7,914 nucleotides of DNA from a virus (taxonomy: Duplodnaviria; Heunggongvirae; Uroviricota; Caudoviricetes), in the IMG/VR virus record IMGVR_UViG_3300029095_000093; one strand, written 5' to 3'. The number at the start of each line of letters is the position of its first letter. Position 1 is the stretch's first letter. Position numbers and translations under genes: made by a program. The notes beneath the pieces were generated by a model. The model was not told the origin of the DNA and made no database searches. It saw only the letters and a list, made by a program, of their open reading frames with translations. Below, in pieces: positions 2,707-7,767 of the stretch.

Positions 2707-2760
2707 ATTTCCTCCGGAGAGCTTTAAACATGCATCGTGCGAACAACTTTAAGAAAACGC

Positions 2761-2795
2761 GTTCGATGTCGAACAAAAAACACTCAATTCGACAT
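2761..2795. repeat. Candidate cosB-type terminase-binding repeats: near-palindrome GTTCGAtgTCGAAC plus a further TTCGACAT copy, flanked by A-tracts
   Basis: Seen directly: GTTCGA (2761-2766) / TCGAAC (2769-2774) inverted repeat; ATGTCGAA (2766-2773) and TTCGACAT (2788-2795) are reverse-complementary copies about 15 bp apart. A-tracts (aacaaaaaac, caaaaaacaaa) lie between and beyond. Location between the cosN candidate and the small-terminase start is where lambda has R3/I1/R2/R1. Confidence 0.35.
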
Positions 2796-2880
2796 GCAAA
2801 AAACAAATAACCATTAATAATCAATAAGATGCAAAGATGATGGTGGCCAATAAAAATGCAAAAACTAGCCTTTTTCCGCG

Positions 2881-2892
2881 ACGCTCCCGCCC
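2881..2892 (-). other. Candidate cosN (cohesive-end site)
   Basis: Minus strand reads GGGCGGGAGCGT followed by CGCGG. Lambda's left end, from memory, is GGGCGGCGACCT followed by CGCGG, giving 8 of 12 identities with identical flanks. It lies about 175-185 nt upstream of the small-terminase ATG, close to the lambda cosN-to-Nu1 spacing. Confidence 0.35.
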
Positions 2893-3121
2893 CGTGGCAG
2901 GCCACCCCACCGGGAGGACCCGTCAGCCTGAAAGCCATGACGAACGTCTGATACAGCCCTTGCATAAATGGCATCGGGATAATCCAGAAAGGAATAGCAT
3001 CGACCCACAAGAATCTGTGTGAGTGTCCTGTTTCTTCCACCCCCGCACAGGACTGGTGAGCATGAGGGACAAACCCGCGAATCATTAGCGCGGTAAAAAC
3101 CCGGTGTGCATCGTTTTTGAT

Positions 3122-3186
3122 TATTCCCGCACACTCGCGCAGAAGGAGTTCCCCGTCGGGCTACGGTCATGGTTAATGCGGGAATA
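3122..3186. repeat. 9-bp perfect inverted repeat (TATTCCCGC ... GCGGGAATA) with a 47-nt spacer, inside a block resembling the lambda bor-upstream region
   Basis: Arms at 3122-3130 and 3178-3186, seen directly. The surrounding ~110 nt (AAACCCGGTGTGCATCGTTTTTGATTATTCCCGCACACTC...GTTAATGCGGGAATACA) closely matches what I recall upstream of lambda bor, where the arms read ATTCCCGGA / TCCGGGAAT. The difference is a paired substitution that keeps the stem intact. Confidence 0.5.
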
Positions 3187-3520
3187 CAGCGACGATACAG
3201 CGCATGATGTGTCAGGCTTGAATACCTTTATCCGTTAAAAGGGATATCAGTTAAGTTATCCCGTGTAGGGTATAAGCCATTATCAAAGCCACTCTGTAGG
3301 GAGTGGCTTTCGTAATGGCAATAAAAAAGCCCCGCGAATGCGAGGCTAAATCCAGGTATTTTTAATGACTGGCTCTTATCTCAACGCAGCCCCTTACCGC
3401 GCGCCAGATGCTCAATATCAAGCATCAGCAATGAGATGTTTAACCATGATTCACTCCAGAAGTGAGCACCACCCTGTCTACAGAGCCAGATGTGAAGGAT
3501 GATGAGTAAAATTATCGCTA

Positions 3521-3988
3521 TCATCGAAGGCATTGCGTCCTGATGTATTCCTGAAGCGTTCTCAGTGCTGTTTGGTCGCGGATAATTCCGTCCCGGATAC
3601 CGAGAACGTTTCGTCCAGCAACTGGAGAGAGTTCGATGGTGGCATCATTGCCCATGCCGGAGGCGCTGGAGGTTTCGGCTGAGGATGGCACAGGGCATTT
3701 TCCTTTGACGAACACCCGACCACCATTATCAAGCTTGCGCCGAAGAGCATCATTTTTAGCTTTCGCATCAGCTAACTCCTTCGTGTATTTAGCATCGAGT
3801 GCATCAGCAGCACGCTGGCGCTGCTGCATGTCAGTAATGGTGGCGGTCGCCTGCTTCAGCTCACTGACTTTTTTATCACGCTGTTCTTTATAGGCGATGG
3901 CGTTATCACGATAATGATTGACCGCCCACGACAGGCAGACGATGATGCAGATAACCAGAGCATAAATAATCGCGGCGACTCTGCTCAC
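3521..3988 (-). CDS. Rz i-spanin (inner-membrane spanin subunit), ~155 aa from a GTG start
   Basis: The ORF track starts at TTG 4003, but GTG at 3988-3986 gives [31 protein letters not shown]..., matching the lambda Rz N-terminus (MSRVTAIISALVIC...) and overlapping the endolysin stop (GTGA). N-terminal TMD, coiled-coil region ([21 protein letters not shown]) and C-terminal Cys. Confidence 0.85.
3562..3768 (-). CDS. Rz1 o-spanin (outer-membrane lipoprotein), 68 aa, fully embedded in Rz in the +1 frame
   Basis: ATG at 3768-3766. Signal peptide [19 protein letters not shown] with lipobox VVGC, then a proline-rich mature segment ([18 protein letters not shown]) with a second Cys. Nested arrangement as in lambda Rz/Rz1. 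Confidence 0.8.
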
Positions 3989-4518
3989 TGATCTATCCCC
4001 CAACAGGCTAATGCGCTTTCCTGGTCACGACGAATAACTTGCCCATAGCAGTTATTTGAACGTATGCGGCAATCGCGCCCACCATCTTTTATCCACCAAC
4101 GAATCGCCTCGCATGCCCCCTTACGATCACCGGCATTCAGCCGCTTATAAAACGTCGACGGGAAACACTTACCGGGGCCAATGTTATAGGGACAAAATGA
4201 CGCGATACCCGCTTTCTGGGGTTCGGTCAGCGGCACTTTAATATTGCGCTCCACCCATGCCAGCGCCTTATCCCGTTCAATGGCATTAACCTGGTCGCAT
4301 TTTTCCTTCGACAGCTTCATTCCCGGTATGACGGGCTTACCATCCACCATTGTGGCACCACGACAGATGGTCCATATACCGGAACCATCGCGGTATGCCG
4401 TAGTGTGGTTACCCTCTTTTTCATCCAGAAACTGGTCAAGTATTTGAGGAGCAGACGCGCCTGCAGCAATCAGCGCCAGAACAGCAGCTGACAGGCCGTA
4501 TTTGATTTTTGCGCTCAT
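3985..4518 (-). CDS. SAR endolysin (T4-lysozyme-like muramidase with signal-arrest-release N-terminus), 177 aa
   Basis: ATG at 4518-4516. N-terminal weakly hydrophobic Gly/Ala-rich SAR segment [17 protein letters not shown]. Catalytic E-x8-D-x5-T signature ([16 protein letters not shown]). Resembles the phage 21 R / Qin-prophage lysozyme family, from memory. Confidence 0.9.
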
Positions 4519-4573
4519 GGATATTTATCAGGCTGCTACCAATGAAAGATACTGGAAAGCCAACTGCAAAAAG

Positions 4574-4888
4574 CTAACAACCCGTAATCGAGTTATCAGA
4601 ACTGTTAATTTTTATGGTATACCGCGCCTTTGAACAGGGTCGCGTTTCTGGCAACAGCTCGTCCCCTTCACATAACCCGGCAGCAACATCCAGGAAGACC
4701 TGTCTGATGCTCCTTCTGGCTGCTGCCTCATAAAACTCCAGCGCGGCACCTTCAACACGGTCCAGCGAGATGTCCAGGTCAAAAATTTCACCGTCAAAGC
4801 GTTTTTTGTCCCGTAACGCTAAAGTTACCGTAACTTTATTCTCAAAATTGCGGATCCCTTTCACAATCAGTTCATAGTTTTGAGTCAT
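4574..4888 (-). CDS. Conserved hypothetical protein between holin and endolysin (DUF1327 / Qin YdfR-like), 104 aa
   Basis: ATG at 4888-4886, 4 nt after the holin stop, using an SD (GGAGAG) inside the holin 3' end. The N-terminal ~65 aa (MTQNYELIVKGIRNFENKVTVTLALRDKKRFDGEIFDLD...EGAALEFYEAAARRS) resemble the DUF1327 protein at the same position in the Qin lysis cassette, from memory. C-terminal half not recognised. Confidence 0.6.
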   Translation of the reverse strand: MTQNYELIVKGIRNFENKVTVTLALRDKKRFDGEIFDLDISLDRVEGAALEFYEAAARRSIRQVFLDVAAGLCEGDELLPETRPCSKARYTIKINSSDNSITGC

Positions 4889-4892
4889 TGAA

Positions 4893-5108
4893 TTACTCTC
4901 CCCGTGCAGCCTTACGCTTGTCTTCTTTAATCTTGAAATAAAGGTTTGTCAGATACGTCAGCAAGCCAAATACCAGACTACCCAGCACACCTATTGCCGC
5001 CCACTGTGAGGGCGTGACTTTATCGAGCAACTGTAAAAACCAGTACCCGGCACTACCTGCTGAGGTGCCATAGGCGACACCCGTTGTTAACTTATCCATG
5101 GATTTCAT
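4893..5108 (-). CDS. Class II holin, phage 21 S-like pinholin, 71 aa with dual-start motif (Met1/Met4)
   Basis: The track ORF starts upstream at 5171, but ATG at 5108-5106 has an SD (GAGGTGGGG) and gives [71 protein letters not shown], near-identical in pattern to S21 as I recall it. Two TMDs and a charged C-terminus; MKSM is the holin/antiholin dual start. Confidence 0.85.
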
Positions 5109-5141
5109 AACCCCACCTCGCAGATGCGGGTGCTGTGTAAT

Positions 5142-5169
5142 GGAAATAAAAAGGCCACCTGACGTGGCC
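5142..5169 (-). terminator. Rho-independent terminator just downstream of the methyltransferase gene (minus strand)
   Basis: Stem GGCCAC (5153-5158) / GTGGCC (5164-5169) with a 5-nt loop. On the minus strand the hairpin is followed by TTTTTATTTCC (rc of 5142-5152). Begins 7 nt after the methyltransferase stop and about 35 nt before the holin start. Confidence 0.6.
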
Positions 5170-5175
5170 ACCAGA

Positions 5176-6228
5176 TTATTTCCCCACCAGCTCGTTTATC
5201 TCTTTCACTGTCTGGTTAAACCGCTCTGACTCAAGCTCAACACCTAAGGCCCGACGCCCCAGCGCCATTGCTGCTTTTATTGTGGAACCGGATCCCATAA
5301 AAAAATCAGCAACCAGATCACCTGGTCGACTACTGGCATTGATTATTTGCCTGAGCATATCCGCCGGTTTCTCACACGGATGTTTCCCCGGGTAGAACTG
5401 AACGGGTTTATGCATCCAGACATCGGTATAAGGCACGGAGACTGATACGGAGAAATAGCGCCGGAGAGATTTAAACTCATCCAGCAATTCAGAATATTTG
5501 CGATTCAGTGAATCATAAGATGCCACCAGCTGGTGGTGTGGTTGTTCCAGTTGTTGTTCCTGAAACTTCTCTGCCGCTATACGGGAAAACAGTGCCTGTA
5601 ACTTCCGATAGTCAGCCTCATTCGGCAACTGCCACTGACTGGCACCAAACCAGTGGGAAACCATATTTTTCTTACCTGTGGCTTCGGCAATTTGTTTTGC
5701 CGTTATACCCAGTTCGGCACGAGCATCCCTGAAATACGATATCAGCGGTGCCATTATGTGCTGTTTGAGTTCCCTTTCTTTTGCCGCATAGCCGTCACTT
5801 TTGCCGCGATATGGCCCCTGGTAATGTTCAGCAAACAGAACGCGCTCTGTGGCAGGAAAATATGCACGCAGACTTTCTTTATTACACCCATTCCAACGTC
5901 CGGACGGCTTCGCCCAGATGATATGGTTAAGCACGTTGAAACGTTCACGCATCATGATCTCAATATCAGATGCCAGGCGATGCCCACAGAACAGGTAAAG
6001 GCTTCCGGCAGGTTTTAACACCCGCCAGAACTGGGTCAGACAGTGGTCCAGCCACTTAAGGTAATCTTCGTCCCCTTTCCACTGATTGTCCCAGCCGTTG
6101 GGTTTCACCTTGAAGTACGGCGGATCGGTAACAATCAGGTCAATGGAATCATCAGGCAGGGACTGAATAAAATGCAGGCAATCAGCGTTGATTAAATCAA
6201 CACTGTTTATTTTTACAGTATTTTTCAT
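5176..6228 (-). CDS. Orphan DNA methyltransferase, beta-class, probably N6-adenine, 350 aa
   Basis: ATG at 6228-6226, TAA at 5178-5176. Motif [12 protein letters not shown] near the N-terminus and motif [10 protein letters not shown] near the C-terminus (IV before I indicates beta class); DPPY rather than SPPY favours N6-adenine. HPCEKP motif as in YhdJ-type enzymes. A ~120 aa insert between the catalytic motifs contains an HTH-like stretch ([20 protein letters not shown]). No restriction endonuclease gene in the window. Confidence 0.85.
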
Positions 6229-6378
6229 GGATCAGTAAGCGTAACTCTGGTAGGCTCACTCTGCTTTTGCGCTAAAGCAGTGGGCCGTGGTTCGCTTGTG
6301 ACCAGTAAGCATGAGCGAATGGCTGGCAGGTGCTACCAACACCCACCAGCCGCCCATTTTCACAGCAGGAAACCGCCA

Positions 6379-6582
6379 TTACTGGCAGCGTCTGAATTTA
6401 TTCCCGTACCCGCCGTTATCCTTCGCCAGACCCGCCAGAACTAACTGAGTCAGTATTAACTGGCACCGGGCTTCGCTTACTCCGGTAGTTCTCGTCATCA
6501 TGCGTGGCGTTACCCACTTGTCAGCAGGTAAGAAATGAAGGACTGCGGCGGCGGTTTCTGTCATATCTTGCTGTTTTAGCAT
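6379..6582 (-). CDS. Small hypothetical protein, possible winged-helix DNA-binding regulator (~67 aa from the second ATG; track start at 6606 gives 75 aa)
   Basis: The first ATG (6606) has no SD; the ATG at 6582-6580 has AGAAGGGA 8-15 nt upstream. Sequence ...AAAVLHFLPADKWVTPRMMTRTTGVSEARCQLILTQLVLAGLAKDNGG has the spacing of a small wHTH (FaeA/PapI-like or MarR-like helix-turn-helix-wing). This is only a pattern-level resemblance. Confidence 0.45.
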   Translation of the reverse strand: MLKQQDMTETAAAVLHFLPADKWVTPRMMTRTTGVSEARCQLILTQLVLAGLAKDNGGYGNKFRRCQ

Positions 6583-6704
6583 GTCTTTTTCCCTTCTGGT
6601 TAACATGACATACCAATAACTCTTGTCTAAAAAGCCAGCAAGATAAAAAGTCAGTATTCACGACCACCAGCGTGTTTACTGTACTGCACCAAGTTTACAG
6701 GTAC

Positions 6705-6730
6705 AAAAAAAACCGCTCAGCGGCGGGTTT
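6705..6730 (-). terminator. Weak terminator-like element: short GC stem followed by a U8 tract on the minus strand
   Basis: Plus strand AAAAAAAACCGCTCAGCGGCGGGTTT. On the minus strand this is a CCGC/GCGG 4-bp stem with a 3-nt loop followed by eight T. The stem is short, so it is marginal. Sits in the divergent intergenic region between the small ORF and the lipoprotein gene. Confidence 0.3.
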
Positions 6731-6853
6731 AAGTTGTGTGGCGAAGTAACCACTCTTAACAGCATATTTGATTTTTTACGATTGTAAACGGTTGATTATT
6801 CATCTCCAATAAAAATAATTGTGTGGGTATACCCTTAGCAATGGATAAGAAAC

Positions 6854-7300
6854 ATGAATAAAATGACTGTACTATTACTTAGCGCAACTATCATTTCAGG
6901 TTGTACTTCTTCCGTACCATTGATAAAGAAAACTCAATCAGGAAAACCTGAGGGGGTTTATCAAAATACGACAAAAGATAAAGTCAAAGATGCCCTTGTG
7001 AATTACTGCAATAGTAGAGGGTTGATAATTTACAACGCGGATAACAGCAGTGTTATATGTGGTAAAGAACTGGAAGGCGGCTCTGCTGTTTTTGGACAAA
7101 TGTTAATCGGAAATGCCTATTCAACAACCCCGGTATCAAAAGTCAGATTTACTATCGCTCAAGTTAATAACGATACAAAAGTGTGGGCCGATATGTGGAT
7201 GGAAACTCAAATGGCAATGGGACAAGTACAACAAATGGCTATAACAGACAACGCAAGCAAAAACACTATCCAACAACGTCTTGATGAATTAAAACCTTAA
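6854..7300 (+). CDS. Predicted lipoprotein of unknown function, 148 aa, AT-rich moron on the strand opposite to all other phage genes
   Basis: ATG at 6854, TAA at 7298-7300. Signal peptide MNKMTVLLLSATIISGC with lipobox ISGC; Thr at +2 suggests outer-membrane sorting. Composition is visibly AT-rich compared with flanking genes (about 35-40% GC by eye, not computed). Weak SD. I do not recognise the mature sequence. Confidence 0.7.
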   Translation: MNKMTVLLLSATIISGCTSSVPLIKKTQSGKPEGVYQNTTKDKVKDALVNYCNSRGLIIYNADNSSVICGKELEGGSAVFGQMLIGNAYSTTPVSKVRFTIAQVNNDTKVWADMWMETQMAMGQVQQMAITDNASKNTIQQRLDELKP

Positions 7301-7342
7301 GTAAACTAATTAAATAAAATGGGGAGAATAAATCGACTCCCC
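7301..7342 (-). terminator. Intrinsic terminator between the convergent Q and lipoprotein genes (stronger for the minus-strand Q transcript)
   Basis: Stem GGGGAG (7321-7326) / CTCCCC (7337-7342) with a 10-nt loop. On the minus strand it is followed by ATTTTATTTAATT; on the plus strand by ACACATTAAA, which is not U-rich. Lies 43 nt after the Q stop and 21 nt after the lipoprotein stop. Confidence 0.55.
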
Positions 7343-7384
7343 ACACATTAAACTGATTCAATTACCCCCTCAATAAGAGGTCTT

Positions 7385-7750
7385 CTAACGATCCATCTCT
7401 AGCTCAATTTCTAACATCATTAACATGCCATCAACTACACCTTCAGCCTTTTGCAATAAACGCCCAACCCAGCAATCAGAACGCCCATGTTTACGGGCAA
7501 GCGCCATAAACGTCATACCACCTACATAATAATCCACTAATAAATCGTGCAAATCGCTGTTGTTCTTTTTCAGGCGAGCCATGCACCCACAAATGATCAT
7601 CGCGTCATCGTCACAACATTGCGGGCGGGATTTTACTTTTGAAGGGATTAGTCCTTTAAATCCTGCAGCAATAGACGACCAGGTGACATCCTCGTGATTA
7701 TTTGCCACCCATGCCCCCCAACGTTCAAGAACCATTTGAATATCACGCAT
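7385..7750 (-). CDS. Late-gene antitermination protein Q (small phage 82/21-type Q, DLP12 QuuD-like), ~121 aa
   Basis: The track ORF begins at TTG 7765; the first ATG is at 7750-7748, giving [64 protein letters not shown]..., which matches my memory of the DLP12 Q protein. Cys cluster CCDDD...CGC is consistent with a zinc-binding Q. TAG stop at 7387-7385. Confidence 0.8.
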
Positions 7751-7767
7751 CAACTTTCTCCACAAAA

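Follow-up and report, generated by a model that had tools for sequence, protein, structure and literature searches.

Which parts of the AT-rich interval between the antiterminator gene Q and the lysis genes of a lambdoid prophage are cargo, how could they be expressed, and what might they bring to the phage or to its host? These questions were addressed on a stretch of 7,914 nucleotides (the window) from a virus of the Caudoviricetes, IMG/VR record IMGVR_UViG_3300029095_000093. The window is part of an Escherichia coli lambdoid prophage, and all its convincing genes lie on the minus strand with one exception, a lipoprotein gene at 6854-7300. An earlier note had proposed that this gene, together with a small open reading frame (ORF) at 6379-6582, forms an AT-rich cargo insert between Q and the lysis cassette. 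Our comparisons point to a shorter insert, placed in reverse between Q and the late promoter pR', that carries the lipoprotein gene but not the small ORF. The product is probably an outer-membrane lipoprotein, and its relatives in other phages recurrently sit beside tail-tip genes, which leads us to propose, tentatively, a role in excluding superinfecting phages.

The cassette at the Q-pR' junction

The borders of the insert were obtained by comparing the window by blastn with the prophage locus L002 of strain A20. Identity is 99% up to position 6789, no match follows, and homology (88%) restarts at 7391, 3 bp past the Q stop codon (7385-7387). The exchanged cassette is therefore 6790-7390, i.e. 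601 bp bordered by the Q stop codon on one side and by the -35 hexamer of the late promoter on the other, and it comprises a promoter-like site, the lipoprotein gene and a hairpin. Its GC content is 0.368 and that of its flanks 0.488 and 0.462; on a wider scale, values of 0.34-0.39 are reached over about 6600-7350, compared with about 0.49 for the whole window. The AT-rich insert described in the earlier note is thus genuine for this cassette, but the small ORF lies outside it, in backbone DNA of 50-53% GC.

Many E. coli strains have chromosomal prophages with 99-99.9% identity to the interval 6229-7384, and matches are likewise present in the sequenced temperate phages PhiR40_1 and PhiR55_1. 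A megablast search of 5426 complete E. coli genomes recovered the entire interval in 162 of them, and only its left 500-550 bases (the small ORF with the adjoining sequence as far as 6729-6789) in approximately 1435. When the cassette was searched alone, it was found as a unit in 185 genomes, always on the chromosome, 95-99% identical and intact. The carriers include the extra-intestinal pathogenic strains UTI89 and NU14, as well as strains from healthy humans, pigs, poultry, water, wild animals and other sources, and pathogen enrichment is not obvious. In genomes that lack the cassette, the slot between the conserved left segment and Q holds other cargo, or none. Strain A20 has a reverse-oriented ompC/nmpC-type porin gene there (L002, 3061-4710), and strain ECONIH1 a reverse-oriented ORF of 339 amino acids with a faint match to the FNIII-A domain of gpJ (L003, 3033-4207), both beside a Q gene of the Q21 family. 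In strain YA-1 a co-oriented ORF of 141 amino acids is located beside a different, ydfT-type Q (L004, 3001-3783). These alleles make the Q-pR' junction of E. coli prophages a cargo slot with several alternative occupants. The cassette is present or absent among collinear relatives (185 genomes for the cassette, about 1435 for the flanking backbone) and its base composition deviates, both here and in 15 of 15 homologue loci, as can be expected for a moron. On this comparative evidence, segment 6790-7390 is most probably a self-contained moron cassette, inserted in reverse between the Q gene and pR'.

The late control region was located on the minus strand at 6788-6705, immediately beyond the left border of the cassette. 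This stretch shows about 80% identity to phage 933W across all three elements annotated there, namely pR', qut and the rho-independent terminator, and it matches 376 phage records. The late promoter (6761-6788), also called in the promoter scan, has the -35 hexamer TTTACA (6788-6783), a spacer of 16 nucleotides and the -10 hexamer TATGCT (6766-6761), which align with TTTACG ... TATCAT of the 933W pR'. Beyond these hexamers the minus strand reads GTTAAGAGTGGTTACTTCGCCAC..., then the hairpin GCCGCTGAGCGG(T) followed by eight T residues (6724-6705). The initially transcribed region (6728-6760) contains a qut-like element, GGTTACTT (6751-6744), which aligns with the 933W qut, GGTTACAT. The intrinsic terminator tR' (6705-6727), with the stem GCCGC-TGA-GCGG(T) followed by T8, was recovered both by the terminator scan and by the 933W alignment. 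While tR' is common to all four E. coli loci compared, the pR' region is shared with the two loci that have a Q21-family Q (L002 and L003) and not with the ydfT-Q locus L004. Likewise, the qut-like part (6760-6730) is kept only in loci with a Q21-family Q, these two included, and is replaced in L004. That the Q-specific segment co-varies with the type of Q fits the assignment of pR', qut and tR'. By its homology to the 933W annotation and its position between Q and the lysis genes, 6788-6705 is very probably the lambdoid late control region.

A location of pR' directly after Q, inside the cassette, was considered and rejected: no promoter-like site is present there, and the 933W-homologous pR' is on the far side of the cassette. 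In the ECONIH1 locus the distance between cargo gene and Q is only 14 bp, which leaves no room for the late promoter. In 933W the late promoter overlaps the 3' end of Q, whereas in the window the 601-bp cassette stands between the two; the late control region is displaced by about 600 bp from Q.

This arrangement has consequences for expression. Because the cassette is reversed and lies between Q and pR', it should be outside the Q-dependent late transcript and antisense to early-operon read-through from Q. The stx genes, according to the 933W annotation, lie downstream of pR' and tR', unlike the cassette. The comparison with classic cargo sites between Q and the lysis genes, made in the earlier note, is apt in that the slot accommodates alternative cargo, but the cassette is upstream of pR' and not in the late transcript as stx is. 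Receiving no sense transcription from either the late or the early operon, the lipoprotein gene would have to rely on a promoter of its own, as genes expressed in lysogens usually do. A candidate is the sigma-70 promoter-like site TTGATT-16-AATAAT on the plus strand at 6792-6819 (9 of 12 matches in a consensus scan). It is a candidate only, since six such sites occur in the region against 2.9 expected. It stands back to back with pR', and the border 6789/6790 falls between the two -35 hexamers.

At the other end of the cassette, a G+C-rich hairpin with a 7-bp GGGGAG(U) stem is found at 7320-7343, between the convergent lipoprotein and Q genes. Its folding energy is -11.2 kcal/mol on the plus strand (z -2.8 relative to shuffled sequences) and -16.9 kcal/mol on the minus strand (z -3.6). 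The hairpin had been taken for the lipoprotein gene's own terminator. The structure itself is real, but the T-run is on the minus, Q-bearing strand (AUUUUAUUUAAUU), whereas ACACAUU comes after the stem on the strand of the lipoprotein gene, and the terminator scan gave a call on the minus strand only (7342->7323). Given the strand of the T-run, the hairpin would seem better suited to ending transcripts that come from Q, or at most to working in both directions. Overall, we consider the anatomy described here for the cassette, and below for the late-leader module with its winged-helix ORF, to be highly probable. It contains nothing unexpected for a lambdoid prophage.

The lipoprotein and its relatives

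The ORF at 6854-7300 encodes 148 amino acids and is the sole convincing plus-strand gene of the window. Its N-terminus reads MNKMTVLLLSATIISG|C, with the lipobox ISGC at residues 14-17. The lipobox cysteine is invariant in 63 homologues, in which positions -3 to -1 fit L/I-[SAT]-[GA], the predominant form being L-[SAT]-[GA]-C; the identification of a lipoprotein gene on the opposite strand in the earlier note is thus borne out. According to the sorting rule of Enterobacteriaceae, lipoproteins without aspartate at position +2 are delivered to the outer membrane. The residue at this position is threonine in the window protein and A, V, S, T, G or M, never D, in the 63 homologues, so that an outer-membrane location can be predicted. 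We can thus predict a mature form of 132 amino acids, starting at Cys17, anchored in the outer membrane and facing the periplasm. Cys52 is found in 62 of the 63 homologues, and so is Cys69, as expected for a disulfide formed in the periplasm. Three motifs are also conserved: SG-x-PE right after the lipid anchor, GN(A/S)YSTTP and W-x-ETQMA-x-GQ. The ratio of nonsynonymous to synonymous substitution rates (dN/dS) is 0.07-0.24 wherever dS is not saturated, which indicates purifying selection. The UTI89 allele differs from that of the window by one residue.

The AlphaFold2 (AF2) model of the lipoprotein has a mean predicted local distance difference test score (pLDDT) of 85.8. It suggests a helix-grip-like fold, stabilised by the putative disulfide, with two strongly conserved loops that correspond to GN(A/S)YSTTP and W-x-ETQMA-x-GQ. 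Structure searches returned helix-grip or TBP-like proteins, namely Flpp3/DUF3568, the BamC N-domain, DUF4468, KA1 and SRPBCC, at 6-12% identity. At such low identity, and for a fold as common as the helix grip, these matches describe the fold and not the function. Among viral structures (BFVD), Foldseek gave no match at E < 1e-3, and all template-modelling (TM) scores were below 0.45.

Sequence libraries gave the protein no name. Public annotation calls it 'hypothetical protein', and it belongs to phrog_3152 (E 1e-104), which is listed as 'unknown function'. Searches of Pfam, NCBIfam, PADLOC and PDB sequences, with the single sequence or with a profile of 63 sequences, gave nothing except noise and matches to signal peptides: Pfam yielded SapB_1 and SUR7 at E <= 0.1, both noise, and the profile matched only the signal peptides of lipoproteins in the PDB. 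That the protein had not been recognised as a member of a known family therefore agrees with the absence of any characterised family in these libraries and in PHROGs. Moreover, no Pfam model covers the lipoprotein domain. A tblastn search of 50,697 phage records found only the near-identical, prophage-derived copies of PhiR40_1 and PhiR55_1, and a literature search by accession numbers and prophage-lipoprotein phrases, within the library covered, found nothing on the family.

The family is nevertheless large. A word-indexed search yielded only about 30 clusters, all from Enterobacterales, whereas an exhaustive profile search yielded 823 representative clusters at E <= 1e-3, of which 408 at E <= 1e-10. 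In a scan of species genomes, family proteins turned up in Photorhabdus, Proteus, Enterobacter, Haemophilus, Rhodoferax, Stenotrophomonas, Caulobacter, sphingomonads and others. One homologue, from Xenorhabdus bovienii (P0012), is named 'Type IV secretion system putative lipoprotein virB7' in UniRef. We rejected this identification, as the label rests on the lipid-attachment signal only; the name is likely to mislead automated annotation. The protein of the window can thus be described as moron-encoded, predicted to be an outer-membrane lipoprotein, and part of a sizeable family that has neither a Pfam model nor a name in the libraries searched.

Phage-borne homologues (43-72% identity) are found in 10 independent cases inside siphovirus tail-tip modules. 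The order is tape measure, lipoprotein, gpM in seven loci (L007, L013, L016, L019, L020, L022 and L023) and gpK, lipoprotein, gpI-gpJ in two (L005 and L006), and the lipoprotein gene is located just before gpJ in one (L018). The Salmonella and Jejubacter homologues (70-72% identity) lie between gpK and gpI-gpJ of lambda-like tails. Those of Citrobacter, Enterobacter, an Enterobacteriaceae metagenome-assembled genome, three Logan contigs and two Haemophilus species follow the tape-measure gene and precede gpM, that of Photorhabdus follows a split tape-measure gene, and that of Proteus stands just before gpJ. Other contexts include a P1-like element with DarA/DdrB, the nin region of a Phytobacter prophage, positions beside integrases or a portal gene, and positions near pdxB and icd. 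In most homologue loci the lipoprotein gene stands among the late tail genes and reads in the same direction as they do. Its GC content is below that of both flanks in all 15 loci mentioned above. Taken together, the variety of contexts and the low GC show that the lipoprotein gene behaves as a mobile moron, which temperate phages have acquired time and again, most often in the tail-tip module. In the Haemophilus paraphrohaemolyticus prophage (L022, 5224-7402), the homologue shares an island between tape measure and gpM with Rha-type and Bro-N-type genes, so several accessory genes with no relation to each other have come together at this tail junction.

The winged-helix ORF and the surrounding prophage

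The small ORF at 6379-6582, on the minus strand, most likely starts with the ATG at 6582, as in the earlier note. This start gives 67 amino acids with the ribosome-binding site GAAGGG, and all homologues begin with MLKQQDMT. Many database entries extend the ORF too far upstream, to 94-128 amino acids, across the tR' region. The protein matches phrog_331 (E 3e-26) and has 89 homologue clusters, some of which are named TrmB, IscR or DprA-WH by their sources. The AF2 model (pLDDT 86.6) contains helices at residues 7-17, 26-33 and 37-49 and strands at 53-55 and 63-65, i.e. an H-H-H-beta-beta arrangement. All top Foldseek matches are winged-helix domains, headed by Zalpha (TM score about 0.8, up to 0.81) and followed by IclR, TrmB, Rrf2 and DprA. 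As modelled, the product is a minimal stand-alone winged helix, which agrees with the DNA-binding character suggested before. Membership of MarR/TrmB was not indicated by Pfam, where MarR_2 reached 14 bits against a cutoff of 27, or by the model, in which no flanking dimerisation helices are present. PADLOC returned only SoFic at E 0.049, which is noise. The protein is a mosaic (alignment A4): the N-terminus and the third, recognition-type helix (RCQLILTQLVLAGLA) are invariant, and helices 1-2 and the wing occur in two allelic forms.

The distribution of this ORF differs markedly from that of the lipoprotein gene. It follows pR'-qut-tR' as the first ORF in about 1435 of the 5426 E. coli genomes and in Salmonella, after at least four types of Q, with or without the lipoprotein. 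It is 100% identical in L002, L003 and L004 despite their other cargo, and it is present without the lipoprotein in these loci as well as in L046-L049. The Salmonella copy (53% identity) is found between a different type of Q and the same kind of methyltransferase. In a prophage of the enterohaemorrhagic E. coli type it comes after yet another type of Q and before a nanS-p esterase gene. Conversely, it was not found within 6 kb of the lipoprotein gene in any of the 11 homologue loci from other genera. According to this distribution, the small ORF is part of a conserved late-operon leader backbone (pR'-qut-tR'-winged helix); it is not cargo and has no specific link with the lipoprotein. Being the first ORF after tR', it should be a Q-dependent late gene, made late and under Q control.

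The earlier note had treated the two ORFs as one divergent cargo unit, and a module of regulator and effector would indeed explain why they are adjacent and divergent in the window, 271 bp apart, with promoter-like sites between them. The comparative data refute this model, and we regard it as very improbable. The two do not travel together: about 1435 E. coli genomes have the winged-helix ORF but only 185 the cassette, the ORF is identical in loci with other cargo, and it is absent from 11 of 11 homologue loci in other genera. Furthermore, the intergenic space is occupied by pR'-qut-tR', which would drive the winged-helix ORF as a late gene.

An N6/N4 methyltransferase gene is often, not always, located downstream of the small ORF. 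In the window it spans 5176-6228 (minus strand, 350 amino acids) and forms part of the late operon, flanked by the winged-helix ORF and the holin gene; its product has an inserted stretch with weak resemblance to HTH_3. The same arrangement of winged-helix ORF and methyltransferase is seen in the Salmonella prophages L046-L048, with different Q and lysis genes. We considered whether the small ORF could encode the controller (C) protein of a restriction-modification system that includes this methyltransferase. C proteins are helix-turn-helix proteins of the Xre type, which counts against this possibility, and it was rejected as a general explanation because the ORF also occurs without a downstream methylase.

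The other genes of the window are those of a lambdoid late region read on the minus strand. Q itself, the right border of the cargo slot (7385-7765), belongs to the Q21 family (PF06530, E 2e-51; Q21 structures 6P18 and 6JNX, E 7e-9), and beyond it the window closes with the end of a DUF968 gene. Downstream of the methyltransferase come a P21-type holin (4893-5171), a DUF1327 protein (4574-4888), a lysozyme (3985-4518), Rz/Rz1 (3521-4003), a DUF1441 small terminase (2215-2706), a large terminase ORF (464-2215) and an ORF similar to gpM of lambda (135-464). The prophage is defective. Positions 1-650 correspond to gpM and the 3' end of the tape-measure gene of PhiR40_1, and the sequence from 649 onward to terL of that phage. 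Compared with intact PhiR40_1, approximately 10.3 kb are deleted, comprising the 3' end of terL, the portal gene, the head genes, the tail tube genes and most of gpH, and this deletion has generated the terL'-'gpH fusion ORF at 464-2215. A short patch at 4532-4637, around the DUF1327 gene, is not homologous to PhiR40_1. Between the small terminase and Rz, about 800 bp (2707-3520) contain no convincing gene, with GC that is partly low (0.42 at 2551-2850).

Possible roles of the lipoprotein and known systems

What could such a lipoprotein do? We propose, as a possibility to which we give somewhat less than an even chance, that it blocks the entry of superinfecting siphophages at the envelope, either by masking a receptor or by blocking the tape-measure-mediated passage of the genome. 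In this scenario, the lipoprotein would be made in the lysogen from its own promoter, would sit on the periplasmic side of the outer membrane and would bind an envelope component required by incoming siphophages. Adsorption-triggered opening of the channel, or DNA passage mediated by the tape measure, could thereby be blocked, resulting in superinfection exclusion; progeny phages might also be saved from wasteful binding to debris. In its working principle, the proposed block would resemble that of Cor, Llp, the mEp Lpp proteins and Ltp, to which the protein of the window is unrelated in both sequence and size. Exclusion morons and lipoproteins are known in comparable places, as exemplified by HK97 gp15, Cor and Llp. 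The repeated placement of homologues in tail-tip modules makes a role in entry or exclusion more plausible than it would be from the window alone. Retention of an intact cassette, despite the loss of about 10 kb of head and tail genes from this prophage, would fit a benefit for the host. In addition, the Lpp lipoproteins of mEpimmI phages, encoded in the structural cluster, have been shown to exclude OmpA- and LamB-dependent phages (PMC11893012).

Several observations weigh against this proposal. No experiment or annotation ties the lipoprotein family to phage exclusion, and no match was found among the defence systems of PADLOC-DB 2.0. The promoter call at 6792-6819 is a consensus match only. 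The conserved loops persist in alpha-, beta- and gamma-proteobacterial homologues, and some distant chromosomal members bear C-terminal PDZ, SHOCT or TPR/YfiO-like domains. Such conservation, and the existence of chromosomal multidomain relatives, point to a conserved envelope partner rather than to a fast-evolving phage receptor, and leave room for functions that are not related to phages. The receptor-binding C-termini of gpJ are not shared among carriers (at most 36% identity over less than 100 amino acids between E. coli and other hosts), so that, unlike for Cor and Llp, there is no sign of a match to one receptor. These C-termini revealed no common receptor-binding domain, and the gpJ tip of the E. 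coli prophages resembles that of long-tailed Stx phages. Lastly, junctions of tail modules are general hot spots for morons, as the Haemophilus Rha and Bro genes illustrate, which makes location weak evidence.

Alternatively, the lipoprotein could be a lysogenic-conversion factor for host fitness, without effect on phages, like Bor/Iss or TraT, acting for instance on resistance to serum or complement, antimicrobial peptides or bile, or on vesiculation. We view this as a less likely explanation. Several features fit it: the gene lies outside the late operon with its own promoter-like site, in a slot shared with the nmpC/ompC porin, a classic envelope-conversion cargo; it is found in the extra-intestinal pathogens UTI89 and NU14; it is kept intact in a prophage without morphogenesis genes; the family reaches chromosomal, non-phage proteins; and the fold resembles the Francisella virulence lipoprotein Flpp3. 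However, no match to the Bor or TraT families was found in Pfam, the varied sources of the carrier strains show no obvious enrichment of pathogens, and the recurrent tail-tip placement in phages of many genera would be left unexplained. A role in the lytic cycle of the phage itself is unlikely in our opinion. The lipoprotein could mask receptors on lysing cells and debris (T5 Llp has exactly such a dual role), assist peptidoglycan or outer-membrane steps of entry or lysis, or inhibit a tail hydrolase like T4 Spackle. Most homologues, being co-oriented within the late tail genes, would be transcribed late, and they adjoin the genes for the tape measure and gpK (NlpC/P60). In E. coli, however, the gene is reversed and upstream of pR' and so escapes late transcription, it is retained in a prophage unable to make particles, and it is dispensable, as closely related phages lack it. 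Finally, the 'hypothetical protein' annotation and the lack of a known-domain match could be taken as signs of a decaying, non-functional remnant. This is hardly credible in view of a dN/dS of 0.07-0.24, 823 family representatives with conserved motifs, a confident fold prediction and intact copies, 95-99% identical, in 185 genomes.

Envelope-level exclusion thus remains our preferred, if tentative, proposal. It can also be put in a bolder form, which we regard as speculative and improbable: the lipoprotein would be the founding phage-borne member of a widespread, undescribed proteobacterial family of envelope domains, whose loops would bind a conserved periplasmic or outer-membrane machine and not a variable receptor, and temperate siphophages would have acquired it again and again, beside their tape-measure genes, as a generic, broad-spectrum and receptor-independent block to genome passage.

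Should a block to phage entry by the lipoprotein be confirmed, a new, larger and differently folded family would join the short list of exclusion lipoproteins of Gram-negative bacteria. Phage therapy would then be affected for about 3% of E. coli, among them uropathogens of the ST95 type such as UTI89. Whatever the function, cargo between Q and the holin gene S splits into two kinds. Induction turns on the genes that lie downstream of pR', such as stx, whereas reversed genes upstream of pR', such as nmpC and the lipoprotein gene of the window, are shielded from late transcription and can be expressed in the lysogen. A protein family of this size without a Pfam model also merits a domain definition.

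Comparison with known systems places the lipoprotein near several of them. With Flpp3/DUF3568, the BamC N-domain, DUF4468 and KA1, which came up in the structure searches, it shares 6-10% sequence identity, and it has no sequence-profile match with them. Bor/Iss and TraT, from lambda and F-type plasmids, are likewise lipoproteins of mobile elements expressed in the carrier cell, but the protein of the window does not match their Pfam families and is of another fold class; besides, lambda Bor lies downstream of the lysis genes and not at the Q-pR' junction. HK97 gp15 and Ltp of the Streptococcus phage TP-J34 are morons in the tail module or near it that stop genome entry of siphophages at the tape-measure step, and homologues of the window gene are found directly after the tape-measure gene. 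The former is located in the inner membrane, the latter is a surface lipoprotein of a Gram-positive host and has helix-turn-helix repeats, and neither is homologous to the window lipoprotein.

Cor (phi80, N15, HK022 and mEp167), Llp (T5) and Lpp021/Lpp010 (mEpimmI) are, like the predicted lipoprotein of the window, phage outer-membrane lipoproteins encoded by small accessory genes. These genes are often beside those for tail or receptor-binding proteins, a placement that the homologues of the window gene share (cf. PMC11893012). They measure about 60-80 amino acids, compared with 132 for the mature lipoprotein described here, and no sequence similarity to Cor, Llp or the mEp Lpp proteins was detected (tblastn against the 50,697 phage records; PHROG 'unknown function'). 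The mEp021 Lpp (gp81, 72 amino acids, encoded downstream of gpJ) was examined as a possible relative and rejected as unrelated in size. Linkage to one type of receptor-binding protein, as is seen for Cor and Llp, was not found either, since the homologues are near gpJ or the tape measure and the types of gpJ differ. Unlike these receptor-specific proteins, the family of the window lipoprotein has deeply conserved motifs and chromosomal relatives. The nmpC/ompC porin moron of DLP12-like prophages, for its part, encodes a 16-stranded porin instead of a lipoprotein and has no sequence relationship with the cassette gene; yet it occupies the same slot, between a Q21-family Q and the backbone of pR', tR', winged-helix ORF, methylase and holin, in the same reverse orientation and, again, with a cargo destined for the outer membrane.

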